Positions 12,222-50,404 of a stretch of DNA of 64,000 nucleotides are shown in pieces (the stretch's first letter is position 1; every line of letters begins with the position of its first letter). The notes beneath the pieces are model-generated. The model did not search any database. It was not told where the DNA came from and saw nothing but the letters and a program-made list of their open reading frames with translations. The DNA lies in assembly GCA_023213395.1 (NCBI GenBank), contig CM041465.1, positions 138,391,741 to 138,455,740 on the forward strand. The letters are read 5' to 3'. The DNA comes from Cycas panzhihuaensis. Taxonomy: Eukaryota; Plantae; Cycadophyta. A program made the translations under genes and the position numbers.

Positions 12222-12477
12222 CTGGTGACTATACTGGGGACTTGTCAGTAAGGGAGCTAGTTCCTATCTCTTTCTATTGATACTATTACCTTTTAGTGGT
12301 CTCCTCCACTTCATCTCCTTTGTTGGACAAACCCCAACACGCATGCCTTGCATCCCTTTCCTTCTTCTAAAGTGTTGGTAAGTGTTGTATGCGACGCTTT
12401 TTACGCCGCCTACGTGGTTTGTCTTCTTTCAATATCCTAGGTATTGTCTTCTTTCATCGTCGAATTATGATTCGAAA

Positions 12478-15400
12478 ATGGAAGGGTACCCTTCCAATTG
12501 GGCCTATCATGCTTTTGCTTCGGGAGCTCATGAGTTCCCCGCATCCATTCTAGGATCCACTCAAGATGGTGACGATCCTATTTACTACCTGGGTGACCAA
12601 CGTCACCCACTAGACACCCATCCTTCTACTCATGCGGTAGAAGGCTCATCTCCTTTTGAGATCCACCACCTAGTTGGTGATTCTTATGAGGAGCGCCCTA
12701 AGGGGTCTACTTCATTTGAGGTCCCATCTACCTCTTATTATCATGTGGATACTCCTCCTGCTGATGTGGTTGAAGCACTTAGTGAGTGCTTTCGAGCTGT
12801 TCGTCTTCAATCGCGTTCTAGATGGTTTGAAGATGTTTTACGTGGTGGAGCGCCTTCTTCATCCACTCCTGTCCCACCTCCTTCATCCGCATCCACACCT
12901 CCCACAACGAGTAACCTTTTTATGCCTACACATTCGTCACGCTCCATCCCTACACCTACTTTGGGGACGCATGTTGCACCTTCTATCCCTCATCATGGTC
13001 CTAGTTCTTCGGAACCCTCTCGTGGTATGTCTTTCTCCTAGCTTGGGGTTAGCATACCTTTCCCAAGTCAAAATAGCATGCCACCTCCTAACGTGGCGTA
13101 TACATTTCTTAGTAGGCCTAAAGGCCCTACTAATGTTACTATCACTAGTCATGCATGTGGGACCCGCTCCCACGTATCCTCCAAACCAATCCAATGGTTC
13201 TTCTCTTTACATATCCCCAGGTTATACTTCTCAACCTTGGGGGCAGGGTAAAGGGAATTATATTCTAGCTTACGGGGTAGACCCGCTACATACATATGGG
13301 GTTGCACCACCCACGAGTGGCCGATATGGACAAAACCCAATTCCACACCCTTCCTTTCCTCCATCCTGCATAGCTCCTTATGCTGCACCTTTGCAAGGAA
13401 TCCCAACTTCCCTCCAAGACACTTACCCTCAAGCCCCTTTCCAGCATGGGACGCTCCCTCAAGGAGGGATGGGTTTACCACCCCCATCCATTCCTTATTC
13501 ATTACCTCCTACATTGCTTGTCGATCCTACGGTCCAGGCAAGGTCACGTCCCTTTATGGATTATAGATCGACACCATTATCTGTTGAGGCATTAAGAACC
13601 AACCTACCACCTCATCCTCCCGAAGTTCCTAAGTTTGACAGAACTTCATCACAAGACCCAACAGAGCACGTCCGTAGTTTCTCTATGGCATGTATTGATT
13701 GCTAGGCCTATAATCACATCCTAATGAAATTATTTCCATGATCCTTACAAGGCGATGCCCTTAAGTGGTTTTATCACCTACCAGCTCATTCCATTTTCTC
13801 GTTCCAGCAACTTGTGGACGAGTTCATCAATTATTTTGATGTTACTCGTCTATTCGAAAGTGGAATGAAATCCCTTCTTTCGCTCAAATAAGGGCACGAT
13901 GAGATGAATTGTGACTTTATGCGGCGATTTCATGACCTTCTTCATTCCACTAAGGCTACTTTACCTGAGGAATTGAAGAGGGATCTCTTCATTAATGCAC
14001 TTCTCCCTGAAGTCCATGTAGAAGTCCTTAAGATGGGGGCGACTACATGCGACTCTGCTATCGCAAAGTGCTTAGCACTTGAGGCTATTGAGATCCAGGC
14101 TGGACTCAAGAAGCCTCTCAAGCCCTCACAACGTCATGAGGTACCACCTCAAACTAAAGAGACCAAACCACAATAATCCACTAAGTCCTCTTCCCATCCG
14201 ACTGAGAAGACCTTAGATCTGCTCACCTCTGCCATATATTCATTCGAATGTACGATGAAGGAACTTAAACTGCAAGCTCCTTCATCACCTACTTCCAACA
14301 AACAAATCCAGAAAGCTAATCAAGCTTCCTTCCCTAAGAACGGTAACGCCCAATCCTCTCAAGCGAGGAAGATAGATTCCTCACTTGAAAAGAAGTGGTG
14401 TTCCATTCATGGGGAGTGTTTTCATGACGAGTCACGTTGTAGGGCCTAGCATCCCAGGGATTCCCCTTAATGTGACTCATCCCCTAAATAGGCCTCAAGG
14501 CCAACCTTGACCAACTGGTCCATAAGGATCCATTCCCTGAACATGGGGAACATGATTGTAATGCTCAACCCAAAAATAACTAGAACCGGGGAAGATCCCT
14601 GAATTCTCGTCCTTCCCACGATAAAGGAAAGGGCACTCGGGATTCATCTTCTTCTTCACGTTCCCCTCACTCACGTACTCCTTCACCTTCGCAGTCCCGG
14701 AACAAGGGAAATAAGGTAATCCAGATGCTTGAGGCTGCTCCTTTATATGCCTTTACTCAGTCTTAAGCCACTAAAGAGGCAGTTGGTGCCTCTTCTTCTG
14801 CTCCACACTCTGATCCTCTTCTGGAAACCTCCCTTTCGGAAGTCCCATTATGTCCTAAGGCCATTCCTATATGTCCTGGTCATTACGATTTTCGAAGGGT
14901 GCTTATCCAACCTACTGTGAAGGGTAAGCCTTTCTTTATCGTTGATGAGCTCCATACTATCGCTGTGGGAATGTCCTTGATGGATGTTTTGAGGAATTGT
15001 CCCAAATAACGGACTCTCCTTTTGGAAGCTTTAGGATCGAATGGTGTGCCCATCCACACTTTGGGTGTTACTCAAAGCCATGAGCTTGTCATTTCCTTTG
15101 ACCCTAAAGACCTTCCCCCTGCATGTGAAAGGGAATGCCAATGGAACTTCCCATTTACCATCACCATTGACACACTTGACTATACTCTGTGAATGACCGT
15201 TGTCGACAACAGTTATTCCGTGAATGCCATGCCCTTGCGTGTTATGCAAGAGCTTGGCATTTCTACTTTGGAACCTGTTCCATGGCGATGCTAAAGCTAT
15301 GATGGTAATGAAAAGACTCCATTGGGATCTATTTCGATCCCACTTACTCTCAAGGGTAAGACTGTCCTCACTGACATTGTAGTCCTTGACGTTGACGTCA

Positions 15401-18400
15401 ACTACAATCTTCTCTTGGGTCGACCATGGCTTGATCAGATGGGAGCTATGTGTTCGACCCGCTGGAGGCAACTCAAGTTTGTCCATGATGGACGGATGAG
15501 GGTTGTTTCCTGCGAACGCCTACCTATTAAGCAAACTCGTCTGATTAACCAAGCGAGCCAAGGCCCTTCTACTCACACCTCAGCTTGCTCCATCGGCATA
15601 CCTGATCCATCCCACATTGAAGAAGATCACGCACCTTCTTCCTCTAGTCTTATGCGCTTTGCTCCTATCAGTGTTGGGAGTTATGGGTACCTTACCTCGT
15701 TTAGCGACGATGAGTCCCATGATGAGGATGAGGGCTTTCCTCACCCCATTTCTTTCCTCCATACTAGTAGGATGCACCCTTCTTGTTCTAGGTCCTAACC
15801 TAGAACCCCTCTCGTTGGTGAGACTAGTCACCCCTTTGTATCATATATCGTTGCACGCTTTGACCCACCAGTCGCTGGTTCTTCTTCTTCATCACCCCCT
15901 GCAAGTAATGGTTTCAAGGAACTGCCTTTTGCTCCTTCCGAGGAGCCCCTTCCTAGCTCTCTCCTAGAGTCTTCTGAGGAGGTTAGATAGCCTGATGACC
16001 ACCACGGTCCCGTTGTTCCCACTTCCTCCAACACTTCATCTATTCAGAGTAAGGTCATCCATGGGGTGGATTACTTCGAAGATGATGAAGCCTTGCTTGA
16101 GCACCTAGTGGGCTCCGTGCCCAACTTTTCTTCTGATCACCATAGGCTTGGCCACTAGAAGATTCTGGCGATTGGGTCCACACTCACTGACCTAGTTCCA
16201 TCCCCTATTCCACCTCTTCCTATTGACCTTGCCCCTCTCCATTTCGAGGAGAGGAATGCCATGTGCATGGGGGTGACCCAGGACATAGTCTTAGCCCCTG
16301 GCAAGGTCATTAAGGTAGGGGCAGAATGCTCTCCTAATGAAGTAAGGGAATATTCCCTTTTGTTCCTGGAGTTCCGGGATGTCTTTGCATAGGATTATTT
16401 TGACATGAATGGAATCGATCCCTCCATTATCACCCATAATCTCACTACCATTCTTGGTGCTTGACCCGTGCACTAGAAGCAGCATCTTCTCCACCCTAAA
16501 CTCTCAGCCACTGTCAAGATAGAGGTTGAGAAGCTTTTGGATGCTAGACTTATTACTTCTATCGACTACCCTAAATGGGTATCCAACATTATTCCCATTG
16601 CTAAAAAGAACGTGACCATCCGGATATGTATTGATTTCCGTGATATTAACAATGCATGCCCTAAAGATAACTTTCCACTCCCCTTCATCAATCAAATCAT
16701 TGATCGAACTACTAGATTTGAAGTTATGTCCTTGATGGACGGCTTCTCCAGTTATAATCAAATTCAGATATCTCCTAAAGACTGCCATAAGATAGCCTTC
16801 ACTACCCCGTGGGGTACCTTTGCCTACAAGGCAATGCCCTTTGGCCTTAAAAATATAGGCGTTCCTTACCAAAGAGCAATGCACTTTATTTTCCATGACC
16901 TCATTGACAACACATTAGAGGTCTTTATGGATGATGTGATGGGCCTGTCATGTGTCAAGGCCCATCATCCCTCCGACTTGCGGGCTATCTTCACGTAATG
17001 CCGTAAGTACCATGTAAGCCTAAACCTGCTCAAATGTGTGTTTGCCGTTACTTCTGTCAAACTCCTTGGATTTCTTATGTCAAAACAAGGAATTCAGATT
17101 GACCCCGACAAGGTCAAGGCAATCCTTGATATGTCGCCTCCTATAACCTAATGACAGATCAAGTTGTTTCTAGGTAGGCTCAGTTTCCTCAGGCACTTCC
17201 TGGCAGACTTCGCTGTAAGCGCCAAACACCTAACAAACCTATTGAAGAAGGGAGCTCTATTTGTTTGGTCTGATAAGGCCCAACAGGCCTTCGAAGGACT
17301 TAAGGAAGCCCTTGCTTCTGCTCCTACGTTGGCATCCCCTTGTTTCGATAGGCCCTTCATTCTCTATACCTCAGTGATTGATGAGTCCCTATGCACTATG
17401 TTGGCTTAGGAGGACGACTCAAGAGTTGAGAGAGTCATTTACTTTATCAGTCGCACCCTTATGGCTGCCGAACTCAACTACTCTCTGGCCGAGAAGGAGT
17501 GTCTCTCCTAAGTCCACACGACCAAGAAGTTTAGACATTACTTGCTTGGTAACACCACCAAGGTGATCGTCTAGTCTGATCCCTTGCAATATCTACTTAC
17601 TCGTTCAGACCTAACGGGTAGGGCTAGCCGTTGGGCTGTCCTACTTTAGGAGTTCGATCTTTGTATCATCAAAAGGAAATTGAAGAAAGGGATGGTAGTG
17701 GCTGAGCAGCTCGCAGATGCCCCTATCCCTAACTCGCTTGATACCCTTGTTGACGATTCCCTTCCTAATGAGTCTATCTTGACTATTCAGGACGTCTCTC
17801 TCCATTTACTCATTGACAATGAGTGGTATGGTGACATTGTGCGATATCTCACACAACAGTAGTACCACCCTGAAGCTAGTAGTAAGGTTAGATCTCGTAT
17901 CTGGACTTCTGCTAGGCAATACTTCCTCATGGACGAAGTATTGTACAAGAGGTCTTTCGATTGGATCCTCCTCCGCTGCGTCGTCACCAACGAAGTAGAC
18001 CAAATACTCTGTGAATGTCACCATGGTATTTGCGGGGGCCAATCTATAGCCCAAAGCATCCTCCGCATGGGTTGCTATTGGCCGTCCCTCTTCAAGGACA
18101 CCCATGCTTTTGCCTTGAGGTGCCAGTGATGCCAGGAACACGCTAACATCTCCCATGTGCCTTCTGAGGCCCTTCACCCTATCATATCTCTGTGGCCTTT
18201 CACTCAATGAGGTCTAGACCTCATCGGGGCTATCTCCCCACCTTCCTCGTCGCAACACAAGTTTATATTGACTACTATGGAATACTTTACTAAATGGGCG
18301 AAGGCCATCCCTCTAGTTACTACCCTAGGTAAGATGATAGCTACCTTCATTTACCAGTATATCATTTACTGCTTCGGGATTCCTGATGTGCTGATTACTG

Positions 18401-19056
18401 ACAACAGAATCCCCTTTTGTAACAAGGAGATGGATGAGCTTTGTGAGAAGTTTAAAATCTCTCACAAAACTTCCTCTCCTTACTACCCCCAGGCAAATGG
18501 TCAAGTAGAGTCGTTCAACAAGACTCTCGTTAACATTTTAAAGAAAATTGTCACTCAGTCTCAAAGAGACTGGCACCTTCAGCTCCCTTTTGCTTTGTGG
18601 GCTTACCGTACCTATGTTCGTTCTGCCACAGGAATGACCACGTTCTCCCTAGTTTACAGTACCGAGGCGGTACTCTTGTTGGAAGTGGAGATTCCCTCCT
18701 TGCGAGTTTCTCCTTAGTGTCTCGTCGATGAGGAGTCGATTCGTCAAGCTCGCCTCCTGGACCTCGAAGCTTTGGATGAGAGACGTTTAGCTGCCTACCA
18801 AGCTAACCTCGCATCCAAAGCTCGCTCACAAAGGACCTACGATAAACACCTTTGTTCTCGTCCTTTGCTTCCCATGGACCATGTCCTCAAATTGAAGTAT
18901 CTTCATGATCGCTTGGCCAAATTCAGGCCCAAATGGGTTGGCCCCTTTGTCGTCATCGAGAACCTCAGTAACTGCGCCTATAGGATCACCACCTTGGAGG
19001 CTCTAGAGTTTGAAAAAGCCGTAAACGAGAAATTCCTTAAGAAATTCTACTCGTGA
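12478..19056 (+). pseudogene. Tat gag-pol (GAG, PR, RT, RH, INT), interrupted by stops and frameshifts
   Basis: GAG: PEVPKFD...DPTEHV and WCSIH-x4-H-x4-C knuckle. PR: VVDNSYSVNAMP and YNLLLGRPWL. RT: ICIDFRDINNACPKD, DGFSSYNQI, FMDD. Degenerate RH: FILYTSVID. INT: ECHHGICGG, YFTKW, ITDN, SSPYYPQANGQVE, KFRPKWVGPF. Confidence 0.95.
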
Positions 19057-19689
19057 CCTCGTCGTCACCTTATTCATGCTCTGAAATAAGCCTAAACTAC
19101 CATCTTAAGTTCGTTTCCATTCCTCCTAGCCACGGGTGGAATGATGACTTAGGATGGCCTCTTCTATTTCCTTCTGGTTCCTCCTGCAAAACCCTCATTC
19201 CCATTTTCCTTGGGACCTTGTCCTCCTATTTGGGCATCCCCTAGTTAGGATGATGCTCTAAAGTATTGTCACTCCCCTCTTGCTCGATATTTCCTTTGCA
19301 TATCCCACTATGCTCCCATGTGGACATGCGTGTTGCCCTATTTCCTAACCCCACATATGTTTATCACAACTACTCATGGTGGTCATGTGTGCTCCTATTA
19401 GGTATATGGCCCTACATGAAAGGAAATATGCACAACCTAAACAAATATCATAACATAAAACTCATATAGTAATCAGCTCAAAATGCAACCACGCATATCC
19501 TCGTGCATCCGTACACCCTTACACACACATAAACATGTAAACAAAATATACACATCATCATATATCAAAATGGGATACCAGTCACCCCGTCTATATACAT
19601 CAAAAATCATGTGTCATGTCATACATATAGTGTGATACATCATCTATGGGAAGTTAGTGTCCTTGTAGGGGGGGTACAATCATGTGGCT

Positions 19690-21642
19690 ATATATGGTGG
19701 CCCCCTGGAGGTTCGTGCTTTCCCTTGTCAAAATCATATGTACTATCCTACTGCTGCCCCGCCCCTAAGGCATCATCTCCTGGTCGATGTGATCTCTCTC
19801 CTAGGGACCACATCCCTCCGAGACTCCTCCTCAGTCTCTACGAGCTCCCTGCCTCGCTCCCCTCATCTCGTGGCCTCCTCGGGGTCACCGCTAGCGTATG
19901 AGTCTGTGTCCTGCTCCGCGCCAACCTCGATGCCATATCCTCTATCAGTTAATTGTATTGGGCATGGATACGATCCTGCTCCATCTCTATGAGGTGGAGC
20001 CTCTCCTCCATCCCCCAGAGTTGCTCCTCCATCACTGCTAGCTGGATATGGCTCCCCATATCCCCTCTGGCTCCTCCCTAAGCCTCCAATACCTGCACCC
20101 GACTCTGTAGACCGTCCCTCTCAGATCGGATGGTGTCCATATCAGCCTACTAATGTCTCGCACGTGCCTTGTGCTCTTGGGACTCTATTATCTATATATC
20201 CCTCACCCGTATCAATGGGGTGAATGCTACCGTGTGACCACCTATCGATCTAGGCTCATCTCCTTCCTGGATGGGAGGTTGTCCCTCTACGTAGGCCTAA
20301 GGGAAAATCTCTCGGACTACTGCCTCTACCAGCCTCTGGATGTCCACTATGCCTACAACCCAACATGCCACGTATAAATCCATGTCCATATAAATATCAA
20401 ACCAAAATCAAACTATGTATGTATCTAGCAATCAAACAACGATAAGAAATGATCATGTCTCACCTGGTGTGGTTGTCAGCTCCTCGACTTAGGCTACTGC
20501 CTCTCCCTTTGGTGCTCCGCCAGCTGCTGGTACCTCCTCCTCTAGTACCTCTTATGCCATGGCCTCAGCTCCTAGAGCATCCCTCCTCTCTACGGCTAGT
20601 GCTTCTACTACCTCTCCAAATCTCCTGACGATCCGTAGCCTATGGGCTCGTGTCACTGGGCCTCTACCCTCGTCTGCAGCTCCTGATGGGCTTGGCTCTC
20701 CACCTGCAGCCCCGGACGGACCTGCCTCTCCTACAACTCATGATGGGCCAGCCCCATCACCTCCATCACTGCCCCCATCATCTCTTAGGGGCACTCCTGC
20801 TCCTCCTACCTCGTCATCACTATCCCACCTCACTGCCCTATACAGATCTGCTATGTAATCTGTCATGGTGAGGAGGTCTAATGATGTGGCCTCCACTGAG
20901 CGACGGACATGAGCCTGGTCCTCGGTCCCTCTGAGCCTAGTCTACCACCTATATACCATCGGGGCCCACTCTGCAATAGGGCATAGTCCCCTCGTCGGTG
21001 CCACTGCTCTAAAGTAGTCGAAGAACCAACACTGCAATAACGTGCTATACGAGAGTCCTCCTTTGCCCGCTATCCTAATAGCGTCTAGCTGTGCGATGAG
21101 ATTTGTCGCTATCAGAGTGGACCAGTCCATCCCCTCTCTCGCCTCGCATCAGCGTACCGTGTCCATCCATCCTCCTAGTTTGTCCCTATAATTCTGTTTC
21201 TGGGAGATCCGAAATAGAATGCATAGTGTGATCAACTTCCTCACTCGAGGAACCCCTGACATAACCATGGTCTAGAGAGGAATCTCTTGCCTCTCCCATC
21301 TGTCCAAACCTATAAAGTATGTGGACGCCTCCATGTGTGCTGCCTCATTCTTTGGCAAGACTCTAGTGCCACGGCCTCGGCCGGTACTCCCAATATCCTC
21401 CTGATATCTCCTGACGTTACTAATACATCTCCCACCTGGGGTAGGTGGAAGACATGCCTCCTCCTGTCTCAGTGCGATATAATATCTATCAACAACCACT
21501 AGTCTGACATATACAGAGGCGTCCTCATGACCTTCAGCAGGCCACACCTCCGTAGGATCTCCTGGTCCTTCCTAGTCATCATCTCAATGAAGCTCAGCAT
21601 TGCCATCCCAATGTTTTCGCGGTTCTCTACCACTATCACAAT
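19690..21642 (-). pseudogene. Antisense plant mobile domain (PMD, aminotransferase-like) gene inside the Tat element, with a coiled-coil-like tail
   Basis: WLLIDIISH*DRRRHVFHLPQVGDVLVTSGDIRRILGVP (PMD N-motif) and DWSTLIATNLIAQL...GGLSYSTLLQCWFFDYF (PMD C-motif). A GT-AG intron at 20463-20353 joins ELTTTPG/IVDIQRLVE in frame. The 3' end is approximate. Confidence 0.8.
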
Positions 21643-21784
21643 CTGCAAAACACCACCAAACTAGTCAGCACTTGGCCCACACTTGCTCTCTATCCTCTAG
21701 ACTATCTCTCAGCCTTGCCTGATCGAGATTTGGGGCTCCTCGGGCCCCCATCTCCTTTTTTCTGCAGTTCTGCCTTCACACCAT

Positions 21785-21814
21785 GCCAAACTCCGCGGTA
21801 CCGCGGAGTTTGGC
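21785..21814. promoter_or_regulatory. Perfect 30-bp palindrome (candidate cis-element)
   Basis: GCCAAACTCCGCGGTACCGCGGAGTTTGGC is its own reverse complement. A related copy lies in the LTR at 9943-9970. The palindrome is certain; a regulatory role is inferred. Confidence 0.55.
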
Positions 21815-22305
21815 TCAAGTCCATGGCATCGGGCCCCGCAAAGAAAGATCACAAGACCGCGATCTTTGCCGCGGTGCAAATGGCACCCCCCCAAAAGGGG
21901 GGGGTTTCTTGCCCAAAAAATCCAAAAATTCTTCTAGTGGGCCACAGTCAGGCCCACTAGGACTATGGCTGCCTAATGCCCCAGTCCTGCCTCTTTTTGG
22001 GTCTAATTTAAACTCCGGGAGGCCTTTTCTTGCCCATACGGGGCTTAAAGATCTACATAAAAATCATAAAAAATAGTAAACTTTGACATGAGAGATGGGT
22101 TGGGTTTTTTATGATCCACTCACTAGATCTGGCCCAGCGCTCGCCATCTCGTCTCTATGATCCCAATGTCTGTCCTCTAGCCCTGATCCAACGATCCAAT
22201 CTCTTTCTGCGTGCCTCTGAAGTCGGATAGCGCTTCGCTGCGTAAGGGAATGGCTCTGGATTTGTTCGAGAGCCCGTGAAAATGAATCTTATTTTCATCA
22301 ATTTT

Positions 22306-22316
22306 CCTTATATAGG
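22306..22316 (-). promoter_or_regulatory. Candidate TATA box for the antisense PMD transcript
   Basis: Minus strand reads CCTATATAAGG, upstream of a GTGAGT donor (22123) and a TTTTGCAG acceptor (21643). Confidence 0.4.
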
Positions 22317-22857
22317 CGAGGACCCCGACAGGCACTGTCTCCATTTTCGCTCTCATGACAGCCCTTTGGATCGTCTCTTACCCCTAATCATCTTTTCCTT
22401 CTGGCCCTGTCTCCCATTGTGCTCCCATAGCCTTCATCTCGCTTTTCCTTGTGAGTGCATTTATGGCACCCTACCAATGCATTTTTTCACAGGGTCCCTT
22501 TTGTCTCGTTTGCGTGTCACTCCCGTGTATGCCCGAGTTTATACTTGTTTAGCTTATTTTGCCATCCTAGACTCATTTTTGCAGCTCATTCCTACCCCTA
22601 GGGTCTCCAAAGGGAATGCTCCCTCTATTCAGAGCCATTCTTTGCTTCCCAAAGCAACCTTTGGCACCCCAATGTGCCCTTTTGCCGCCCACTTCTAGCC
22701 AGTGGTTGAATCGCCTACTCTTGTCCTTGGGTAGCCTCATTGCTAGGTCCTCCTACCCTTCACAGCCATTTATTACTTGCCATACGAGTCTCTTTGTGAT
22801 TCGACTCTTATATTATTGCACATTTTCCTCTACCGAGACTTTTTTCTGTCATCATCT

Positions 22858-23235
22858 ATGTCTCTCTTCATCTTTACCAACGGTGGAAGCCGCAGTAATC
22901 CCGGACCTTCTGTCGTCGCATGGATTCTTCGCAGCTCTTCCAGACATGACTTCCTGCATTCTAGAATCTTTCTCCCTGAGGCCACCAATAACGAAGCCGA
23001 GTACATGGCCGTTATCAAGGCCCTAACTGATGCGCTCCATTTCCATCGCGAATCGGTTGTTCTTCTTTACAACTCCTAGGTTGTGGTGTCCCATCTCACC
23101 TAGGTTTACCAGGTGTGATACCCTTACTTGAAAGCCCTCGCTTTGACCACCAAGTCTCTTTTAGCTTGTTTCCAGTATGTCGACATCTGACACATTCCTT
23201 GGGCCCTCAATATTGAGGTAGATAGTCTTGTTCAC
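22858..23235 (+). pseudogene. Additional archaeal-type RNase H (aRH) domain downstream of integrase
   Basis: FIFTNGGSRSNPGPS...EATNNEAEYMAVIKALTDAL...YNS*VVV...HIPWALNIEVDSL, matching RNase HI DGGSRGNPG / TNNxAEY / DSxLVV / HIPRxxNxxAD. Confidence 0.88.
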
Positions 23236-23673
23236 CTCATAGATAGTCTTGTTCACCTCATCCTTGAGCACCGCCTTCCTCTTCTTGCTGACCGTCCCTG
23301 AGACTTGCCCGGTTGCTCTGTCACCCAAGTCCCAGGCCATCGTGCACATCACCTTGCAATCCATTCGCACCTCCAAAAGCTAGCTGCTAATGAGGTTAAA
23401 CTATGGCGACTACCAGGTTTGCTCATTCACCCTTTTTACCTGACTTTATCATGCACATCTCTTTGCACTTTTGTGATGGAGGCAGTCCCTATGTTGTCTT
23501 CACCTCTATCCTCGTATCCACACGTTCCGCCACGACACTCGTCGGTACCCTTGACTTCTGTTATGATTATGATTTATATATGTACATACACATGTGCTAC
23601 TAACAGTTGTGTTGCCAGCATTCGCCATCGCACCATGCTCCTGAGCGGTGAGGCTCTGCTGCCAAGGGGGCAG

Positions 23674-26460
23674 TGTTTCCCAGCTACTCGGAATGGATAA
23701 GGATAGGTCAACCTAGTTAGGCTCAAGTATACTTCTCCCTTTTCACTTGTACTATTTCTTTGGAAAGGTTGACAAAAGTGTTGCCTCGTTGCATGACTGC
23801 TTGCTTCATTTATATGATCACTTTACATTTGTTGCCTGTTCATGCTGCTTGTCATATTGTGAGCCTATGACGACCCAGTGGGACCTACCTTTCCGCAAGG
23901 TAGGCATTCCCATGGCACTTTACGACTCTCCGCGATGTCTCCACACCGCCTTGAGTTTCTATTAGACTGTATGTCCCATTCATCCCTCGACCTTGAGCTC
24001 CTAGCACCTCATTTCTGGGACCTTTTGCCTGTTGATGTTTGCTTGCCTCTGTCCACGTGCATTTTGGACTATCTCAGCCACTTAGACAGGAGGGCCAGCC
24101 CCTCCCAGGCCTGCCACATCACCTCCCAAAGCTCCTGGAACCTAAAATTGCCATTTGGCTTTTACGGTCCCACACCATCAGTAAACTTAGTGAGTGCTGA
24201 AGTTTCTTGGCGGTACCATGAGGTTTGCCATGGTGCGACTATTATCAGTTATTTTTTAAAAAACTGCTATGGCAATTCTCGCATTTCTTGTGGAATCGCC
24301 ACGTGGCCTCGCATCCGCCTTAGCCCTATTCGTGCCATATTCACCTACTTAAGGTTGGGATGGGTATAAGTATCCAAACCCTCATCATTTTGAGGGCTTC
24401 TTAGATCATTTTTTTCACTCTCTTACATAATAGTTCCTGCTGCAACTTCTGCTCTCCTTCTCTTCCTGTTATAGGTGTACTTGTAGGCCTATGTTTCCTG
24501 TAACCTCAGGCTAGGATCTACCTGCAACTACTTACTTCCATGGTAGGAAGCCTCTCTCTAAGTTTTATCAAGCAATTTTGGTGTTGATTCTTCTCCAACT
24601 CACCCAGCAAGTGTCACTTTGGACAGTCCATTGGAATCTCTCCTGCAAACCCTTGCACGGGTCCTCTTCTCCACTGATAGCAAGCCCAAATCTGCCATAT
24701 ATCTGCCCAGTAGATCTTCCGAACTATTTTCTTCTGGATTTATGGTAAGTTACCTCCATATTGGACCTACTTCTTGTCTTGTTTGCCTGTTTCCTTCAGG
24801 TTTCACCATAGCAAGATTTGTTTCCATTATATTTGGCTCGTTGCTTTCTGGCTCTACCTTTCTCTCCACTAGTTTTCTTCGAGGGAGTAGCGAGAGAATA
24901 GTCACAAGGTTGAGTGAAGAGAGCAAGGCGAGGCAGCCCCCCTTTTCAGTCCTTCTCTCCAAGGGTAATCCCTTCCCACCTTCTCTTCTCTTGCTCCATG
25001 CTCTTCTTGGGATTATTAGGAGTGATTGAGCCTTAGGCCTGCGCTGGATTATCAGCATATGCAGCCTCTTGCTGCGTTGATTCTAGGACTGCTCGCCTTT
25101 TGTTTGGACCCCCGTAGTGTCCCTCGGGTTGTTGGGTATCCCTTGATATCATTGGCAAGGGTTGTGCACCGGATTGCTGCCCATAGCAACTCTATGTCTT
25201 GCATATTTCCCCAATGCTTCGTTACCCTTTTCTTTGCATCTCTTGGTTGTCCTTAGTTGTCTTTACCATTACCTTGCTGTGCTTGAGAGTTGTGTGGAAA
25301 ACCCAGCAGAGGGTTAGCCATCCTGAGGCTTCCCTTACTCCATTTTTGCTTGATGTTTATCCTTGCTTGAGAGAGGGTTTTAGAGCTTGTTGCAGTAACT
25401 ATTTTTCCTAACACTCTAACATAAGTATCACATATATACTTGCATATACATAGTTTATCTTTTGTAGCCCCTTCTCAGAAGGGATAAGTCCATGCATGTG
25501 CAGGTTGTCGTGGTGCTCTTGCGAAGGTATAAAGCGTTCGGATCTGGGTAAGGTCTACCATTTTGTTCTTTGCTTTGGCTTCTTTCCTTTTTGCTTTCTT
25601 TTCATAAAGGGGAAGGTAAGGGAGCCCCCACCATTCACGTCAAGACTTGGTTACGCATCCATGGATTGACGCAAGGACGTACGTTGCACGTGGGTGAGGT
25701 CCCCCATCGGCCGCTACATCTTCCGGGTATGTACATCCTTCCTCTAACTCTCGTTTTTCCTTTCTTACTTTTGTTTAGGATCTATGTGTTAGTTAAATAG
25801 GTCACACATAAAAGTAAAAGGGAAAACAGTATATTTTATTTACATTTGTATATTTGTACATTGTATACTCAACCCTCATAGCAAAAGGACCTATAGGAAA
25901 CTCACCCTTCCCTTTTCCTTTTCTTGCAAAGCCTAGCTTGCCCTTTTGGTTCATTCCACTTGGGATTGTTTACTTGTATATGTGACACCTATTCCCATTT
26001 CCTTTCCTGTTTTCTTTTCAAATCGTTAAGGGAAACTTTGGTTTAGTTGTCCCATTCTCTTTTCTCTCTCATCCTCTTGGCCTTATTTGCTTGGTTAAAT
26101 AACCAAGAGGAACCTGGCCACATCGTAAGCTATCGCCTACCTTGTTCCCGCTCGTTTCCCTCCATCATAAGGAAACCTTTGAGGACTCTTTTCTTCCCCT
26201 TCCGGCCACCCAAGGGTGGGAGGATCTTCCTCTCGAGTTTATCTGGGCTACCTTTCTTGTTTTCCCTCTTTCTCTCTTCGATAAAGGACCACCCCAAGGT
26301 AATTGGGTATCATCCGCAGGTCCCAAACTCTTGCTCTGGTGCATGAGGCACCCTGCGTGATACTTACTTTGCTTGTAGGTTTTCACCCGCACCCTCAATA
26401 TCACCATCGACCATCATCATTCCTACCAAGCTTAGCGATTATCCCGTAGACGCGCATCCA
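23674..26460 (+). repeat. Tat 3' LTR
   Basis: Starts TGTTTCCCAGCTACT after the PPT and ends CATCCA. Same length as the 5' LTR. Confidence 0.95.
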
Positions 26461-30115: not shown

Positions 30116-30917
30116 CAATAGAGGATGGAGGAGGTGACAGAGGTTTATCAAGAATACCACATAAAGAATGAGCCTTATCTGTCGATGAGAACAGAGAATG
30201 GGGTGATAACCCCAATAGGTATACAAAAAGTGAAGGTGCCCTCATCATAAGATCTCTAGATCAAACCCCATGGCCTCTTCGTATTCTTATTCCTTTGACA
30301 GAGAGCCCGGTATGCTTATGAAGGATTAATAGGCACAAAGTATGACCAAATAATTCTCTGCAAATTCCCAAGTCCATTTTATTCACTTCTGCAACAAATC
30401 CAATTGTTTAGAAATGCCTTCATTTCCATAACATGTTACTTATATTATTTCCACTCGAGCATCTAGGCGCTCCTACTAATCAAAATAGGAAGCCCTTTGC
30501 TAAAGTAAATTTTATTAACTCTCTAGAAAGGTGTTGAAAATTGTTTACCCTACTCTTGACCAAAAATCAACATTTACTATCGCTTAATTTTTTTTGCATA
30601 GAATATTATAAGTTTGGCCAACAGGGTAAACAACTTTACTGACTTAAGGTTTTGACGGAGACATGCCATGATTTAATATAATCGATGACCAACAAAGTAA
30701 AATTCTCTTCAACGCTCCAATAGATGCATGTAATCTATACTTACAAATCTCACTTATTGGGGATAATGAGAAAGAATATTACACATCAAGCATTTCCATG
30801 TAGGATTGATTTTCCCATAGCCACTCATATACATCATATATAGATGTCAATAACCTAATAGAACTCATGTTATAAGAAAGAAAAAGGGCCTACAAATATC
30901 ATTTGCAACACCCATTC

Positions 30918-31047
30918 TCACTTGCTACCTCGGGCCACCATCTCTTAGTAGTGTGAAAATTATTCTTATCTCTAAGGATGAATTTGTTGATTAAATTTAG
31001 CAATAAAATCCTCCATAAGCTTGTTTAATTCTTTATTAGGGATGGGA
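30918..31047 (-). pseudogene. Captured C-terminus of a DUF761 (cotton-fibre-expressed-like) gene
   Basis: Translates ELNKLMEDFIAKFNQQIHP*R*E*FSHY*EMVARGSK*. Reverting single substitutions gives the DUF761-type signature ELN..VEDFI.KFN.Q.RLQRQES...Y.EM..RG, ending at a stop. Confidence 0.78.
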
Positions 31048-31569
31048 AGCTTGTTAATGATTCTGAAAACATTCAAACCAGTAATGAGATCGGCATCCTT
31101 GGTGGCCTATCTTTGAGAATCATTGAAATAAGCTGGCATAGTAATAATAGTGTTCTTTATAATCTAACCCAAAAAATGCCTCTACAATCTCTTTCATCTT
31201 ACTCAAGACCATAGAGGAAATTTCTTCAAGAGAAAAATGTTTCTTCTCATCTTTATATCTAACCTCAATCATGGGCTTATCATCAAGACCAACAAAAACC
31301 TTAAAAGGCCACATCTTCATGTCCTTCTACATAGAAGGATCATTGAAACACATTCAGATCAATCTATTTACATCAAATACAGTATTCTGTGGATTCATGG
31401 ATGCCTAATTCTTAGTTATGTCTCCTATGAGGCATTTAGTATTAGTGAAAACCACATAAGAGGGAGTAGTCCTATTCCCCTAATCATTTGGAGTTATCTC
31501 CACTTGATCATACTACCATACACCAATGCAGTTGTACATCATTCCCAAATCAATTCCAACTACCTTCAT
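31048..31569 (-). pseudogene. HSP70: Captured cytosolic HSP70 N-terminal (ATPase) fragment, intronless, with stops and one frameshift
   Basis: VGIDLG...GVW*YDQVEI..ND*GNRTTPSYV.FT...NPQNTVFD...KMWPFKV...[13 protein letters not shown]...[14 protein letters not shown]...GLNVFRIIN. Confidence 0.95.
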
Positions 31570-31871
31570 ATAAATCATTTCCCATGCATAAATTAAGTTG
31601 AAAGCCTAATGAAAATCATAATACGGGGATAGAAAATAGTAATATAATCTAAGGGCAGGTCATAACACCAAAGACACCAAGCAATAGCTAACCATAGTTA
31701 ATTCCAACATCACCACATCATCATTATAGCAACAATTAGAGCCCATAGAAAGACTCTTAGATTGAATGCACACATAGTTATATTATACATATCACTCACA
31801 TCCTAGGTTTAAGCAGTGCCATCTTGAGAAGTACGAGGATGGCTACCTTTAAAACTTACTCTAATAGTACA

Positions 31872-32237
31872 TGTAAGATGCACGCACTCGATAATCAAGA
31901 ACTAAAAATTATCAACATAAACCAATGTATAGATCTATTGATATGTTTCACTGAATATTGAATGTATACATATATATAGCAATGTAAAATTGTTATAAGA
32001 GAGGCTTTTTAGAATATGAAGAGTTGATCATGAAAGGTAACACATGGCACCTTGTATGATTAATGTTATAATGATATTACAATGAGGTGAGAGTAAATGA
32101 GACCCCATACATATAGGGTCACATCCTCAAACTATTACTAATCCTAACTATGACACTAATACCTTTATAATGCACTAACATAACATCACTTTAAACATTA
32201 AACATATGACCTTTAAATTAAACATTATATTCCAACA
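31872..32237 (-). repeat. 5' LTR of the outer non-autonomous element
   Basis: TGTAAGATGCAC...ATTCCAACA followed by TSD ATTAT. Confidence 0.9.
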
Positions 32238-33843
32238 ATTATTTTTACTATTATAACATTTTTCAATGTTTTTATAGAGCCTATTTAGTGTCATGTAGTG
32301 ACCTATATAGTCCATTTGAAGAGTTATTTTCAAGCTAATTGAGAGTTGTATTTTGATGTATTTTTATGCACATTTAGGGGTTATTTTTTAGAATTGTTTT
32401 GAAGTTTTTTGGGGCTATTATTTCATAAGATTTCTAAAGTTTTTAAGGCCTATTTTATGATATATTTGGAGTATTTTATAGTAAATTTATTATAAATTCA
32501 AAGAAGGTTGTTCTTACAAATTTTGAAGTTGTTATTCATGGAGGAAAAGTAGCATATCTACTATCAAAAAAAGAGATCAATTACAAAAGAAAAAGAGACC
32601 CACTGAAATAAAAATGAGTTGTGGGACTGACCATCCCAATTGCTCAAATATGAGCTATTTTTTTGAAAAGAATAGAAAAATATTTGGCCTCTTAGTAGCC
32701 TTATTTAAATTTTTTTGCAATGTTTATCAAGTGAGAAAGTTGTCTTGTGAAAGAGTATTGTAGCTTAGGTTTCAAGTTTGTCTTCCATATCCCACTCTTA
32801 AAAAAATGAGGCAAAAGCAAAACATGCATATAAAAAATAAAGCATATTCCTTGTCACTAAAAAAGCTCCTCTCATCCCTTTGTATCTAATTCTATTCTGA
32901 TTTTATTTGGTTATTTGAAAAGTGTAGGAATCTAATGTAGGCTTATTGCAATGTTTAAAGTAGTGCCAGTACTAATGTAGGTCATGTTCATAGCCTAGTG
33001 TTAGTACCTGCACACTAGTTGTTGTATTACCAAGGAAAAGGTTTTAGGGTTTGAACAAAAATTGCCCATTGCACTGCACTGCACTACCATCTAATATCAT
33101 GGCACTTGCTCTATCAAGAACCCTCCCATCTTTGCTCAGTACTCACTTTCACCTCTTCCATAAGGAACTTTTCCACTGAGTCTCCCAAATCAACTACTAC
33201 CCTATGTTCATGGACTCTATTGCTCTTCAACCCTCTAACAACCCTCTTCAAATGGCACACTATCAACAATGTGAGATTATATAGTAGATGACTATGAAAT
33301 GGTTAATTTTTTTTTAAGATAGAATTGAAGATGAAAACCACAACCAATTTTTTGGTGAAACATGAAAGCTAAAAGCAAAACACAAATTTCACTAGTAAAG
33401 CCCTCCTTGCAAGGAGAATAAAGTAAGCCATGTCTACTAGAGATAAGAAGTCTATATCTCGAAAGGAGAGGCCCCAGATAAAAGGGACTGTAGACAAGAA
33501 GGTTTGGCTAGATAGTAATGGAGAAACCTGCATAAATAAATCACTCTCTTTTGGATGGAGTATCTACCTTCGACTTCATGATAAATCTAGTTTAGTCACC
33601 ACTCAATGTCAATTACATAATCAAAAAAAAGAGAAGCATTCAAGGGCAAAACTATCATTGAACTAATGTAGATGTAGAAGAATCACATAGAGCACCCCAA
33701 GCATACATAGTTGCATTATGCAAATGCCCCTGCATACCTTGCACACAACATCGAAATTACCAAAATCCAGACATAGTTGTAGAGACAAAGTATGAAGAAG
33801 TTGAATTGCTACACAATGAAAAAATAATAATAATAAACCCTAA

Positions 33844-34303
33844 GGTTGCAGTCCCATGTAGGAGGGCTTTTAGAAAACCCGAAGTAGTTGTGCTCCATTT
33901 TTTACAAGGCGGATAGGGGAAATTGGGTCCCGTGGGATTTTTCCATTTCCCTACACCACATTCTCCTACCATGGGATAGCATTGTAAAGGTATAAATGCA
34001 CACTACAGATGCGACAATTACATATCAAAATATTTGGCATGAAGAAGTTGGCACAAAATTTTTTTGGCAAAATAATCCCTCACCAATCAAACAATACCAA
34101 TTGTCTAGTCTATAAATTGAGTGGGTTCCACTCAATTCAACAACACAATTTTTGTGTTGCTAAAAAATGACAGAGTTGAGTCATTTTACTCCAGGAATCT
34201 CAAAGAAGATTTGCTCTTCTCCTGTAAGCGGGTTCCCACCCACTACATGGGACCAGCTGGGTTGCAAAAATCAAAGCCTAGCCCTCTACATAGAATCGTG
34301 CTC
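33844..34303. mobile_element. PIF/Harbinger (Tourist-like) MITE, short decayed copy
   Basis: TAA on both flanks. Ends GGTTGCAGTCCCATG and CATAGAATCGTGCTC. Both arms are homologous to 57071-57974. Confidence 0.8.
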
Positions 34304-35006: not shown

Positions 35007-35229
35007 TTTATATGTCCATTAAGGCGATTTGAGGCCATAATGCCTTTGTATAAGGCCATAGAGTATTTATGAGGCCATTGTGTCTTTTGTTTTCAATCAT
35101 AGATACTGAAGAGCTATTTATTATCCTATATTGGCAAGAGATGGAACCCCATTTTTTATGCTACTCTTGTACATTATCATCAACTTACATATGGACCATA
35201 AGACAATACGTTCCCTAGGTGAAGTTGAC

Positions 35230-35900
35230 TTGGTACAAATTGTACCACGTATATGAAAGAACATCTTAACTAATCAGTGGTCACAACGGTAAGCTACCCA
35301 TATGATCTGATGGATGGAACTCACTTCATATAGACATCAACAATACACTATGTTTATTATAATAATTTGTTCTAACACCATTTAAAGACTTATACTTCTA
35401 TTCTGAAGTGACATTTTATTTAATATAAGTGTTTATTATAGGAGGAAATATTGAGTGTAATATATAATTACATTCACACCCCATTCATACTCTCTTATAC
35501 ATTATTTATATTTTATATTGTAGGTCAGCTTGGGTTATGTGCCACCTTGAAATATGTGACAGCACACAATCGTTGATCCTTGAGGATTCTCACATGCAGT
35601 GACTTGTATTATAAATATATATATCATCTTTCATATAATTTGAAGTTTGACAATTCTTCCACCTACATTGAGGTTACACATGTACATACTTCATATATAT
35701 TGAGCTTATTGTTCTATTCTTTCACTCACCATATTAATTCATCCTTGTTTATTGTTGGGTCTACTTTATATATTTTCATCTTATTCCAACATAGTAGTAT
35801 CAAAGTCACGTACATTCTATATTCCAACATAAAGGTATTAGAATTGACACTTTCATATTCCAACATGGTATCAAAGTCGTTGCTTTCATATTCCAATAAC
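35230..35900 (+). mobile_element. Short-LTR retroelement relic related to the outer element: 3' internal segment, PPT, ~340-bp LTR, repeated LTR-end/PBS
   Basis: 35295-35317 matches the rc of 5567-5589 at 20/23. PPT ATAGGAGGAAA at ~35438-35448. TGGTATCAAAGT PBS at 35866. Confidence 0.55.
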
Positions 35901-40940: not shown

Positions 40941-42098
40941 ATAAACAACTAAGCCCTACAAAACCCTTATGCAAAACGATAATGAGTCAAATGAGAGCAA
41001 AATTTTTGATTGAGTGTTTTTCTCTTAAGTACCCCTAGTAGCATTTAGTAAAATATTTGACCAAGCATTCCACTACCATTCTAATGTTGATAAGTGTTTT
41101 TACAAACATTTTCATGACAAACTTTTAAAAATTGAGAGAGAATTATTGGAACGCTACCTACCACACTTACAATTGAGTATTTAAGGATGTCTGATGAATT
41201 TAATCTAGCCATAATCAGAATCAGTTGGAGGTAGCATGTGTTACCACTCCTTTATTGGGACAACACCGCAATGAAAAGCATTATAGAGTTGGTCTCTAGA
41301 AATATGGACAAGATAGAGATATTTATCGATCTCATTGAGCAAATCACCAAGTTACCTTGTGTCATGAGGGTGCTAATTGGAGACGAGAATGGCAGTAGAT
41401 AAGAGTTGGTTTTACATGGCCTTTGCAAATCAGATTCATGCACATACAAGGGAGGCACAAAGATTAAAGATCTCTTAGATCTAGAATTGAGATGGCTAGC
41501 CAAAATCTATGTCTTATAATTCCTCGTGAAGAAAAAAAATCACATATTACCCTACCAAGATTCACATACCGCCCTACCAAGATTCTAACAACCCTCCTAG
41601 AGGTGCAAGAGGGAATACCACTTAACTAGAGTGACTATTTGGCACAATCACTCCAAAAATAATTATAAGAATTAAGAGAGCTAAAATTGGTGTTTAAATA
41701 TCCCTCATCACTATTAAGACTTGTTTGCCCAAATACTTACAACACAGTCGTCCAAACAATAATTGAGGATGGATGGCTTCTATGTTAACAATGGATAGGT
41801 TCATTTCTCCTAGACGTACATTTAGATGAAGTTAATTACTTGTAATCATGATAATAACACAGATTATATTATGGTTTCAAGCTAATACATATTTCACTCA
41901 TCCTCATCACCCTTAAAAAATTAAAAAAACTTGGCAGCAAACAAAATAGGTGGTCAAGTCCACGATGGATATAGAATCAATTGGAGAATTAACACTGCCA
42001 CCACAGGAACTGAATGAGGGAACTGTCCAAGATGAAGGAAGCCTAGTAAACAAAATCCAACAAATGAACGAATGGCTCAATGAACTAATAATGTATAA

Positions 42099-45000
42099 TC
42101 AAGGCTAAATTGTAGACTCAAAGAATGTTACCTAATTCAAGGATTATCGAAGAGGTGACAGAAAATGAATTATATTCTATTACCTTTAAAATCTCATGCT
42201 TACATTCACGTTACACACTTTGATTTTTGTATAATAAGGTACCTCTCATTTATATTGAGGGTTTTGTAACCACCTGAAAACCTACCTAAGTGGTTGTCCT
42301 ATCGACTAAGTTAATTGACGTTATTGATTAACTCCAAATTATCTAACTAATTAATTAATTGACTAATATAGTAACTTAAATATACTTTACATATAAGTAC
42401 AATAATTTACACATTATTTTATATGGTGTCATGACATATAGATTAGTAATACTCATTATCCCTCCCTGTTCTAAAGAAAATTGACCCAAATTTCTTAGTC
42501 TTTGATGAATAAACAAAAGGTAATCCACAATGTTTGACGTAGACCATGTTGTCTTTTTATTCACCAAGGAGAGAGATGATGTTGAATGAGATCCCCTAAT
42601 ACTAAGAAGTGATGTTGATGAGTATGGAAATGAAGAATCTCGCATAACAATCTTTGACTCAACTATGGGTTTCTCATTAATAGTTGTCAATTAAAATGCC
42701 TTGAAAAGTATGTGTCCAACGGATATTGAAGAATTATCATACAAAGTAGGTTTTATGTTATTAAACCCTTCCTTAGTGTGACATACATTTTGTACGATGT
42801 TATATCCTATTACCTGTGTTGGGTGCAAACTTGCAAGAATGGCTACAAGTACATTCATCAGCAAGATATGAGAATGATTTACTTGCTCTTGGATAGATCT
42901 CTCTAACGATGTGGAATCCCCTAGCTCTAGTGGCAATGCTAGTTGAAAAAACATTTGTACCTATTGAGTGCTTGGTTCAAGCCTTGGTCTTACAAATAGG
43001 TTAATGCTTTCTCAAACAAAATAGGTGAGTTTGGTTGCTTGCGTACTTATTCTTGAAGTAACCGGAGATGATGAAGAGTGGAGTACATAATTTGTGTTGT
43101 ATTTCTGCAAGTGATATATATTAGCAAGCCCATAATACACGACCTCTCAATCATATTGATAGAGTCTACTTAAACATAATTCACAACAATCCATGAGAAT
43201 TACATCACAAGTGACTCTCTACATAAGGCATCATTGTAAATGTTACATGACACTCTGTCGATCTTTGTTTGCAAAGCTCTCTCTTTTTTAACCCATCCAA
43301 GTGGGGAAGGATTAGGATAAGGCTCTATAAAGAGATTGAGATCCCTAACAATTTTATTAGATACCAAATTTTTCATACTACCATTGTCAATAATGCATGA
43401 TATGATGCGGTCCTTAGTCTAGCAATTCTGAATAAAGAGAACTTCTCTGGTTGAAGTATTATAATCCTTTGTCGTCATGACAAACTTGAGATCTACCACC
43501 ATATAATTAGTGATAAGTATTATTGGTGGCTCCATGTAACTGCTTGATGTACTAACCTCCCCATTTAGTGTGTTGCTTTCTTCTTTGGTTAACAAGGTCT
43601 TTGCTTTAAGCTTTATATTGCTCCTACTTCCATCATTCCTTGATGGAGTGACTACTAGTCTTATGTAATGTGGAGTACTTGGATTTCCCCTTCTCTTCTA
43701 TTGAGGGATTTGTTACACCAATTTCTTTTCCCTGATTAAAAGGTTGTTTTAATAATCATTGTTGCTACAATCAAGTAAAAGATCTATAGATCTTGCTTTC
43801 CATTTTCAATGTGTACTAGAAAACTTCATCTAGGGATAAAATTTGTATGGGATCTAACTTTTCTTACATAATGAGAATAGTCCACTCAAGAGTTTGAGCA
43901 TGAAGACATGCTCAAAATCCTATGACTCTACCAATAAGACCATTTTATTAAAAATATTGTTATATTTTTGAACAATTTGTTTAATTTGTTGTCACAACAG
44001 TAACCACTTCTTTTTCCTTTTATCTTTGTTTACAATAGGATAAAATTGCTCTTGAAATATTATTTTAAAATTGTCCCAAGAACTTATTTTGCCATGGGTG
44101 TTTACATATATTTACCACCATACTAGGCTTGCTCTGCGTTGTATCTCTGCAGCAATAATTTTTTCATCATTTAGAAGGCCTTGACACTTGAAACAAACCT
44201 CTAAGCTTCAAACCCAACTATCTAAGGTTTTGGCATTAATGGTGCCATGAAACTTCAAAATGATTATTTGAGTATACAATTTAAACTACAAATGCTAAAT
44301 AGAACTATTATGTGAACCTAGATTTGTTAGCCCTGTAGGAGGAGTTGTTTGTTGTGTCTATTATACCATCACTTGTTGAAACATCATCATATATTCTACA
44401 TCGTCTAGGCTTAAACACCTACTTGTCGCTGCAATGCAATCTCCATCATTTATATAATAAAAGCCAAGGAAAACTCCTCTGATCTTCACTCAGAGTCTTC
44501 AGCCATATCCTCCTTGGAAGAAACATGTTTTCCTCTATAAGATATGTTATATTTGACAAAAACTTAATAATTAACTTCAAAGATGTGAAAATACTTTTAC
44601 AAATGTCAGTATTTTAATGGCTCAAAATTTATTATGGGTATTAAAATCTCTTAGCACAACTTCTATTTTTGGTGTACTTGATCAAGAAAGATGTGAGTTT
44701 CAGCACTAGACAATTAACTTTTTAATGCTTTAAGTCATTATACTATCACATTTGCTTTTAATAACTCTTTCCTTGTTAATAAACTTTCGCACTTGGACAC
44801 TCATTGATTAAGAAAATGGCTTTACACAAAATGTTGCCCGTGCAATTCTAAAAATAATGATGTTTCTCCAATTTTTATAGAGCTTATAATGATAGTTTAA
44901 TTAATCTATACATAACTCTTGAAACTTGGGGAATATGCTAAAAATATTTTTAAAGAATATGCCAAGAATATTCTAACTAAAATATTTTTCCCTAACCTTA

Positions 45001-46206
45001 CAATAAGTCAATTTTTTTTTTATTATCAACTTTTTGCAACATTTCCATCTCTACAATTTTGTGTTTTCTTCATATTTGAGGGTAATTTTTCGTCATAGAA
45101 ATCAAATTTACTAGGCATTTGATCTTAGTTCATTAGTTGGTTTGGCATTAGTCATGGTGTCTACATGGATGCTTGACGTGTTATTTTATCGATTAGTCTA
45201 GTCTCACCTTTGTTGTTTTGCTCGCTTCTTGACTTGTCAATATATTCATTCCAGGTGGCAATTAGGTCACCTCACCTTACAATCCATTTCAATCTTCGGT
45301 GTCTTGTTGTTTGCCAGTCTACATTACATTCACATTTATAGGCATTTGCCCCCATTAGGCATTTGCAAGTGATTTTGCTATTGTCCTTTATGGACTATTC
45401 GAGGATCCCACATCTAACACCACCTTCCTTGAGGTATTTCCCTACAACTGCAAGACTTCAATGAAGTGAATACTTTGGCCTAGAGGGCTCTCTTTTCCAT
45501 GTGGCATGAATTGTCACATTTTTCACATGATTTAAAATGGCATCTAGCCCCTTGACGATGCTTCATCTTTCTCTCGACAACAATGCTAAGTCTTTTCTAA
45601 GGGGATCACATGTTACAAATCTCAACCTCTGACTCAAGTGTTGCCTAAGAATTGATCTTTCTCATGAGCAAAGCATCCTCACATGGCTAGGGAATCACAT
45701 GATTCCTTTAATTTTTAAAGCAAGGTGAATATATAGATACTTTATATTCTTCTACCAAATTCGAAACCACCTAAGCTTCTTTAAAATTTAATTAAATCTT
45801 TACAAACACTAGGGTATCAGACTCCATATATCTTCTTTAAAATCCCCTATTTATGAGTGGGCAAACCAACAATTAGATTGCATGCACACCATCTAATATG
45901 TAATTGATAGTGAAATGCAAACTCAAAGAACATTAACTAATTCAAGGATTATCAAAGAGATGATTGAAAATGAATTCTCTTCTATTAACTCCAAAATAGG
46001 GCTTACATTCACATTGCACACACTCTAATACCTGTACAATAAAATGCCTCTTATTTATATTGAAGGCTTAGTGACCACCTAAAAACCTACTCAACTAATT
46101 CTCCGACTAATTGACATACTAATTTAAATGTATTTCACATTTATAAGTACAATAGTTTACACATTGTATTATAATGCCATGACATATAGATAAATAATAT
46201 TCAACA
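42099..46206 (-). mobile_element. Internally deleted chromovirus (CRM-like) LTR element with gag/protease relics
   Basis: Diverged direct repeats at ~42099-42459 and 45905-46206. Reverse PPT TCCCTCCC at ~42459. Gag FHGTINAKTLDSWV*SLEVCF...SLVWW...SSWDNFK..FQEQFYP at ~44040-44260. TSD not found. Confidence 0.7.
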
Positions 46207-49915: not shown

Positions 49916-50404
49916 TTGATGAAAAGGCAACAAATACTGCAGTCACTTCAAGACAACATCAGGACCCTTACAAAAATCAAAGATCTAAAACAGAAAATTT
50001 TAGAACAGCCATATTAGGAAATGAGTCCCTCAATCAACTAATATTTCTCAACAAATAACAAAATTTTCCAGTGACCTCTTGATGAAAAGGCAACAAGTAT
50101 TGCAATCACTTCAAGACAACATCAGGACACTTAAGAAAATCAAAGATCTAAAACAGAAAATTTTAGAACAGCCATATTAGGAAATGAGTCCCTCAATCAA
50201 CTAATGTTTCTCAACAAATAACAGAATTTTCCAGTGACCTCTTGATGAAAAGGCAACAAATACTGCAGTCACTTCAAGACAACATCAGGACCCTTATGAA
50301 AATCAAAGATCTAAAACAGAAAATTTTAAAACAGCCATTTTAGGAAATAAGTCCCTCAATCAACTAATATTTCTCAACAAATAACAAAATTTTCCAGTGA
50401 CCTC
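49916..50404. repeat. Three near-identical 163-bp tandem units downstream of CPN60
   Basis: TTGATGAAAAGGCAAC starts at 49916, 50079 and 50242. Confidence 0.95.

Follow-up and report, generated by a model that had tools for sequence, protein, structure and literature searches.

Within a 64,000-nt window of the Cycas panzhihuaensis genome (the whole stretch of DNA analysed), a decayed LTR retrotransposon carries parts of two host genes, the 5′ part of an HSP70 gene and the 3′ end of a DUF761 gene, joined in one reading frame. The fusion is real: profile matches of both domains and an LTR pair bear out the original prediction, made from the letters and open reading frames, of an in-frame HSP70::DUF761 chimera in such an element. 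The copy in the window is dead, as it has 11 premature stops and a frameshift, which went unmentioned in that prediction. The chimera probably arose by template switching that captured two host genes in an LTR element, with a few further copies then being made and decaying unselected.

The fusion is on the minus strand. Its ATG (31569–31567) precedes KVVGIDLG, and the frame, over a span of about 216 codons, closes at a TGA (30920–30918). HSP70 similarity runs to GLNVFRIIN, and the DUF761 part then follows in unchanged frame. Both Pfam profiles proposed for the two parts match, with one frame across the junction. PF00012 matches over profile positions 1–130 (E 7e-39) in the first frame and over 129–169 (E 2e-14) in the next. 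PF05553 matches at 2–36 of its 36 positions (E 3e-7) in the frame in which HSP70 ends, with a score of 30.3 bits where the curated cut-off is 22 bits, and this match is C-terminal, ending three residues ahead of the stop. Seven of the premature stops are in the HSP70 part and four in the DUF761 part, and the single frameshift, near 31171, is within the HSP70 part. The fusion starts 302 bp inward of the 5′ LTR of the element (the coordinates of all features are tabulated).

An ancestral fusion of some 215 amino acids had been proposed. An earlier open frame is plausible, since other copies lack the frameshift, but the ATG is not the HSP70 start. Related HSP70s have, at the aligned position, a Gly codon that lies inside the gene, and no similarity to the start region of those relatives is seen at the ATG. 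Lobe II and the substrate-binding domain of HSP70 fall outside the front half of the ATPase domain, and a full-length product, having half of the ATPase domain and neither of the other two, would have been unable to act as a chaperone. [Opposite the HSP70 part, a 142-codon plus-strand ORF (31168–31596) matches PF10712 ‘NAD-GH’ (E 4e-13). This match is probably the known antisense shadow of HSP70, and as a real plus-strand domain it was set aside. The ORF is intact while the sense frame took five stops there, for which chance suffices.]

Features of the outer LTR element, its captured gene parts and its nested insertions (positions in the window)
Feature	Position	Strand	Basis or remark
Target-site duplication ATTAT, outer element	32238–32242	.	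identical to 5082–5086
5′ LTR, 366 bp, TG...CA ends	31872–32237	−	87.3% identical to 5087–5442; many contigs align
Primer-binding site, Met-tRNA type, decayed	31858–31869	−	8 of 12 consensus letters match
Leader; LTR-proximal part common to family members	31570–31857	−	depth profile, contig, joints
Captured 5′ HSP70 part, Hsp70-5 class (assigned from sequence), Pfam positions 1–169, front half of ATPase domain	31048–31569	−	
Junction overlap, Asn-Glu-Pro codons, 7–8 nt	31048–31055	−	loose ends, codon survey, chance estimate
Captured 3′ end of DUF761 gene, 45 codons and stop	30918–31055	−	PF05553; 86–90% identity to likely parent
3′ untranslated part of DUF761 parent, at least to here	30865–30917	−	parent-like contigs align beyond stop codon
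Rest of 5′-side internal sequence	30116–30864	−	no Pfam match on minus strand; A8 at 30595–30588
Nested copia, 5.3 kb without its own insert, outside the capture	7749–30115	−	gag, protease-region and integrase Pfam matches
Gypsy inside copia, 2.8-kb LTRs	9435–26460	+	RT then integrase; K2P 0.10
3′ internal region of outer element, purine tract 5443–5449 at its end	5443–7748	−	
3′ LTR, 356 bp	5087–5442	−	
Target-site duplication ATTAT	5082–5086	.	

The 5′ LTR predicted to be adjacent to the fusion was found, paired with a 3′ LTR to which it is 87% identical and with ATTAT outside both. The K2P of the pair is 0.143 ± 0.023. Three of the four TG...CA end dinucleotides are intact and one is decayed, and the chance of the 5-bp flank match is about 0.001. 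A primer-binding site and a purine tract are both present and both decayed; the former fits the Met-tRNA type at 8 of 12 letters, the nested copia shows a site of the Met-tRNA type too, and the latter is backed by loose ends of family contigs. Without the nested copia and gypsy, the outer element is 4.78 kb. In three of four public DNA runs, 45–62 contigs exit the LTR at 32237, and because their loose-end consensus resembles the sequence from 5443 onward, that sequence is on this comparison taken to be the real 3′ internal end of the family. No Pfam retroelement domain of gag or pol was found in six frames of the internal regions, and when the proteins of the nested elements were used to look for pol remnants, 2 of 15 comparisons beat their shuffles, both with unconvincing alignments. 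[Remnants of integrase, chromodomain, RT and RNase H picked out by eye at 5443–7749 have no Pfam match, were unconvincing in the shuffle test and were rejected.] With its LTRs, target-site duplication, primer site and purine tract, and no detectable gag/pol, the outer element is a non-autonomous LTR retrotransposon. Heat-shock elements are absent from both LTRs and the leader, and Rfam has no match within the 64-kb window.

The LTR divergences of the nest are 0.14 ± 0.02 for the outer element, 0.19 ± 0.02 (K2P) for copia and 0.10 for gypsy. The copia LTRs thus seem older than the outer ones, which is the wrong order for the nesting, yet the two values are within about 1.6 standard errors. Copia flanks agree at three of five letters and gypsy flanks at four of five. 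Several contigs from three runs match 30116–30360 at about 83%; this segment, which has no Pfam match, may belong to the family or represent a third capture. Elsewhere in the window there is a weak inverted similarity between 5540–5640 and 35213–35350 (tblastn E 0.003), a 163-bp unit present three times in tandem at 49916–50408 (94% alike), and two old direct-repeat pairs, 75–81% alike (33835–34276 with 57062–57931, and 42089–42455 with 45894–46203), which are probably LTRs of further elements.

Both likely parents of the fusion can still be read. The likely DUF761 parent is represented by two contigs without HSP70 (record 1 of X19, 967 nt, and record 12 of X7). They are 86–90% identical to 30880–31033, and continue past the match as GC-rich non-HSP70 sequence. 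Read by hand in the frame of the window, the loose end of this parent gives Asp-Gly-Asn-Glu-Pro-Ala-Met-Pro-Asp, and its Asn-Glu-Pro falls on 31055–31047, the position of Ile-Ile-Asn-Glu-Pro in HSP70. By hand count, 13 of the 22 loose-end letters as far as 31055 agree with the window, and none of the 8 past it does; of the nine mismatches, six are C>T or G>A. The protein of the DUF761 parent was also sought by word search, which gave one candidate and no match. On the HSP70 side, a decayed HSP70-like contig (record 14 of X7) has seven of the eight overlap letters in common and then goes on as HSP70. Against the overlap on this side, the exact junction 8-mer is present in only 20 of 75 HSP70 loci surveyed. 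The likely HSP70 parent, judged from a match that lies outside the junction letters, is record 3 of X19 (2486 nt), which has 7 differences in 78 and KPMIEVRYK as in the window.

The search for junction microhomology suggested in the original prediction therefore has a positive outcome, an overlap of 7–8 nt between the likely DUF761 parent and HSP70, which would occur at a random junction with a probability of 6e-4 to 2e-4. The accompanying estimate, that an in-frame join has a 1-in-3 chance, gives way to the Asn-Glu-Pro codons common to both parents. Both genes read these codons in one phase, so a switch there could only yield an in-frame fusion, and selection is not needed to account for the frame. 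The junction so resolved is gene-to-gene only, not element-to-gene.

To which HSP70 the captured part belongs bears on whether an RNA step has left a trace. The best single-domain matches carry IIPNDQG and NPQN, where the window has ITPND and NPQN. In Brassica, IIPNDQG is reported for Hsp70-5 and IIANDQG for Hsp70-2 and -4, and in the B. napus genes described there the Hsp70-5 members are intronless (4/4) and the Hsp70-4 members intron-bearing (4/4) (PMC6707343). The usual HSP70 intron site is as given in PMC10687569. Eighty HSP70 loci were fetched, 77 of them covering the intron region, and an intron of >100 bp is at the NTVFD site in 26; none of these has the Pro (0/26). The genomic-length Pro/Gln loci are all intronless (5/5), two of them being identical in protein and none being from the host. 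A tree built from 54 rows, among them 20 of the 26 intron loci (six were excluded for overlapping matches or duplication), places the window on a long branch with the Pro/Gln group (the 5/5 intronless loci), split from the 20 intron-bearing loci at 96/83. The nearest HSP70s are transcripts that group apart from the named angiosperm proteins, which, with the old nested LTR elements, led to the guess of a gymnosperm host. Of eight diagnostic columns, the window shows the near-class residue in six, a stop in one, a third residue in one and the intron-class residue in none. On these comparisons the HSP70 half is assigned to the Hsp70-5 (Hsp70b, AT1G16030) class.

That the HSP70 part is uninterrupted at NTVFD, as predicted, is confirmed. 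The absence of the intron had been read as a sign of mRNA capture, and this argument fails because the Hsp70-5 class is intronless wherever tested. An intronless parent, which the prediction itself held to remove the argument, is what the class-level evidence gives. Most likely no intron existed to lose, a class-level statement that draws on loci other than the gene of the host. The missing-intron argument is unsafe for HSP70 retrocopies generally, one plant class being without the intron. [In another plant, truncated HSP70s of this Hsp70-5 subgroup occur several times on four contigs of 12–30 kb (P0022, P0027, P0126 and P0127). These have odd residues in common, read through NTVFD and are without DUF761 (as scanned in P0022, P0027 and P0126); they are possibly a separate amplified family of HSP70 fragments. 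DUF761 is present in 0 of 11 truncated HSP70s of 196–358 aa.]

In the capture envisaged, two host mRNAs would be packaged together with element RNA in a particle, and reverse transcriptase would jump between the messages at the common Asn-Glu-Pro codons. The chimeric product would take the place of the coding region of the element, a helper element would mobilise it in trans to a few more places, and the copies would then decay without selection. Rather unlikely, though the foremost alternative, is that both pieces were copied at the DNA level, as filler in double-strand-break repair via the same microhomology, and that retrotransposition or duplication followed. Microhomology is a mark of DNA repair as well. 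With an intronless class as the source of the HSP70 half, nothing calls for an RNA step and a DNA-level route fits too; neither a lost intron nor a clear poly(A) tail is present to prove such a step. However, both pieces are sense-strand in the orientation of the element and at the place of gag, as in the cases described by Tan et al. (PMC5131818). The DUF761 piece, moreover, extends into the 3′ untranslated part, and an A8 tract would be about 40 nt from the end of the parent contig if the two are collinear, a weak point that is only suggestive of poly(A).

Further copies were sought as short contig pieces from the four public DNA runs. Contigs 82–83% alike bridge the junction without a gap in three of the four (X1 at 30921–31125, X5 at 30913–31260 and X7 at 30981–31244). 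The search for other copies suggested earlier is thus answered in part, with short contig pieces only. These three have several differences in common and may represent a single locus. Near-identical pieces (0.7–3% different), from runs of three species labels (X1, X5 and X7), are the window’s own locus. Since the junction is present in independent runs and in divergent copies, it is not an assembly artefact. None of the four divergent contigs that cross 31171 has the frameshift of the window copy, one of the four being HSP70-like and not fusion. The possibly-RNA run, X19, has no contig that bridges the junction, an absence that was given no evidential weight; an exact-match search for the junction pattern in metagenome contigs, a weak scan, had no matches either. 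A contig 89% alike, at 31061–31210 and of identical extent in X2 and X5, has several differences in common with the second copy; it ends short of the junction and is probably a third copy. On this count the chimera is present at no fewer than two loci, and probably at three. [Contigs of X1 and X2 skip about 141 bases within 30845–30987, the DUF761 end included, and would be an allele or copy with a deletion.] Contig depth, a rough guide only, is about 2–60 inside the element and hundreds to thousands on LTR parts.

These copies bear on a second alternative, an improbable one, in which the chimera began as a host gene, for instance by HSP70/DUF761 recombination, and was captured whole, the 83% copy then being the gene itself or what is left of it. 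The contigs across the junction have lengths of just 205–350 nt and none itself extends to an LTR, as would suit such a gene, and DUF761 is an often reused C-terminal module, for instance in NLR receptors (PMC9271155). The LTR context of junction-bearing copies comes from separate joints. Against a prior host gene, the start of HSP70 is found linked to the primer-site leader in other contigs (31530 to 31799 and 31567 to 31805; one 83% contig also covers leader 31570–31715). The distance between window and second copy (JC 0.19–0.21) is roughly double that between window and parents (0.10–0.16), which is expected if the second copy decayed too. No fusion protein was found either. Of the top 150 hits among 1.84 billion representative proteins, 36 were picked for extra or longer matches and scanned, and none of these carries DUF761; 0 of 5 longer hits of another search carry it.

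Capture by template switching followed by unselected decay is also the reading with which the substitutions are consistent. Compared with L001, C>T or G>A changes make up 42 of 55 differences at codon positions 1–2. Of 153 invariant residues, 38 have changed (an implied K of about 0.13), and two CpGs are left in 652 bp. The 13 listed of the 22 differences from the DUF761 parent are spread 4/4/5 across the codon positions. Decay thus looks neutral and methylation-like, a pattern that tests mainly the window copy’s own lineage, on which no purifying selection on the fusion was detected. The proposed test of selection is in this way answered chiefly for that lineage, where the pattern is neutral. 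[A 50% third-position difference from L001 was rejected as a sign of selection, L001 being a distant relative.] The distances given above suggest that the copies diverged shortly after the capture, each of them then decaying. The divergence from the parents exceeds half of the LTR divergence (0.07), and would leave room for an earlier phase. The intact frame of a functional chimeric retrogene is absent from the window copy, and no functional evidence was found, in keeping with the original caution that function is unproven.

It is very improbable that the family kept the hybrid of two stress-responsive messages because it was useful, as an LTR-driven product of about 215 residues (half of an HSP70 ATPase domain and the DUF761 helix) maintained by an active family as, for example, a selected co-chaperone or defence-partner decoy. 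In its favour, copies have the in-frame junction in common, the ATG is in frame, other copies lack the frameshift, four of seven listed sites at which window and second copy agree against the parent are third positions (too few, and mimicked by parent-side changes) and Bs1 is described as having become transcribed and translated (PMC13317346). Against it, the overlap explains the frame with no need of selection, few copies are indicated by the rough guide of contig depth, the divergence of the copies is about as deep as that of the parents with little time left, decay is neutral and the ATG is not an HSP70 start. That, in addition, one of the other copies is still intact or was taken over by the host as such a chaperone or defence decoy is equally improbable.

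The fusion is best regarded as a clean but ordinary gene capture of the Bs1 type, with no sign that the hybrid was ever useful, and it would gain in importance only should some other copy prove intact or selected. It documents how an LTR element can shuffle exons in a large plant genome, with both likely parents and their overlap still readable, and it illustrates that microhomology can force a fusion into frame, with no selection implied. The carrier is like TRIM and LARD elements in having two LTRs, a primer site, a purine tract and a target-site duplication without detectable gag/pol, but at 4.8 kb with 366-bp LTRs it suits neither size class neatly.

Literature searches returned no report of an HSP70–DUF761 fusion in titles and abstract openings. 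DUF761 proteins are described as defence-linked and often integrated into NLRs (PMC9271155). A survey of gymnosperm transposable elements puts the number of coding fragments captured in each genome at about 400,000, with two or more fragments in 13.68% of carrier elements on average; its main text mentions neither HSP nor chimeric frames (PMC13477047). In maize Bs1 (Elrouby and Bureau 2001, 2010), which has 1–5 copies in Zea, parts of unlinked host genes are reported in one frame (PMC5131818, PMC13317346). The element in the window is likewise an LTR element with several partial host genes fused in frame, few copies and common switch points. The donors differ, being HSP70 and DUF761 here and H+-ATPase, glucanase and xylanase in Bs1, and while Bs1 is transcribed and translated, the window copy is interrupted by its 11 stops and frameshift and has no lost intron to show an RNA step. 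Tan et al. (2016) report multi-gene chimeras with microsimilarity at 25 of 29 junctions, of median 6 bp (PMC5131818). The window case, unlike theirs, is from a plant, old and decayed, with only its gene-to-gene junction resolved, but as in their account host parts replace the coding region, there are two parents with a short overlap, and secondary copies follow.
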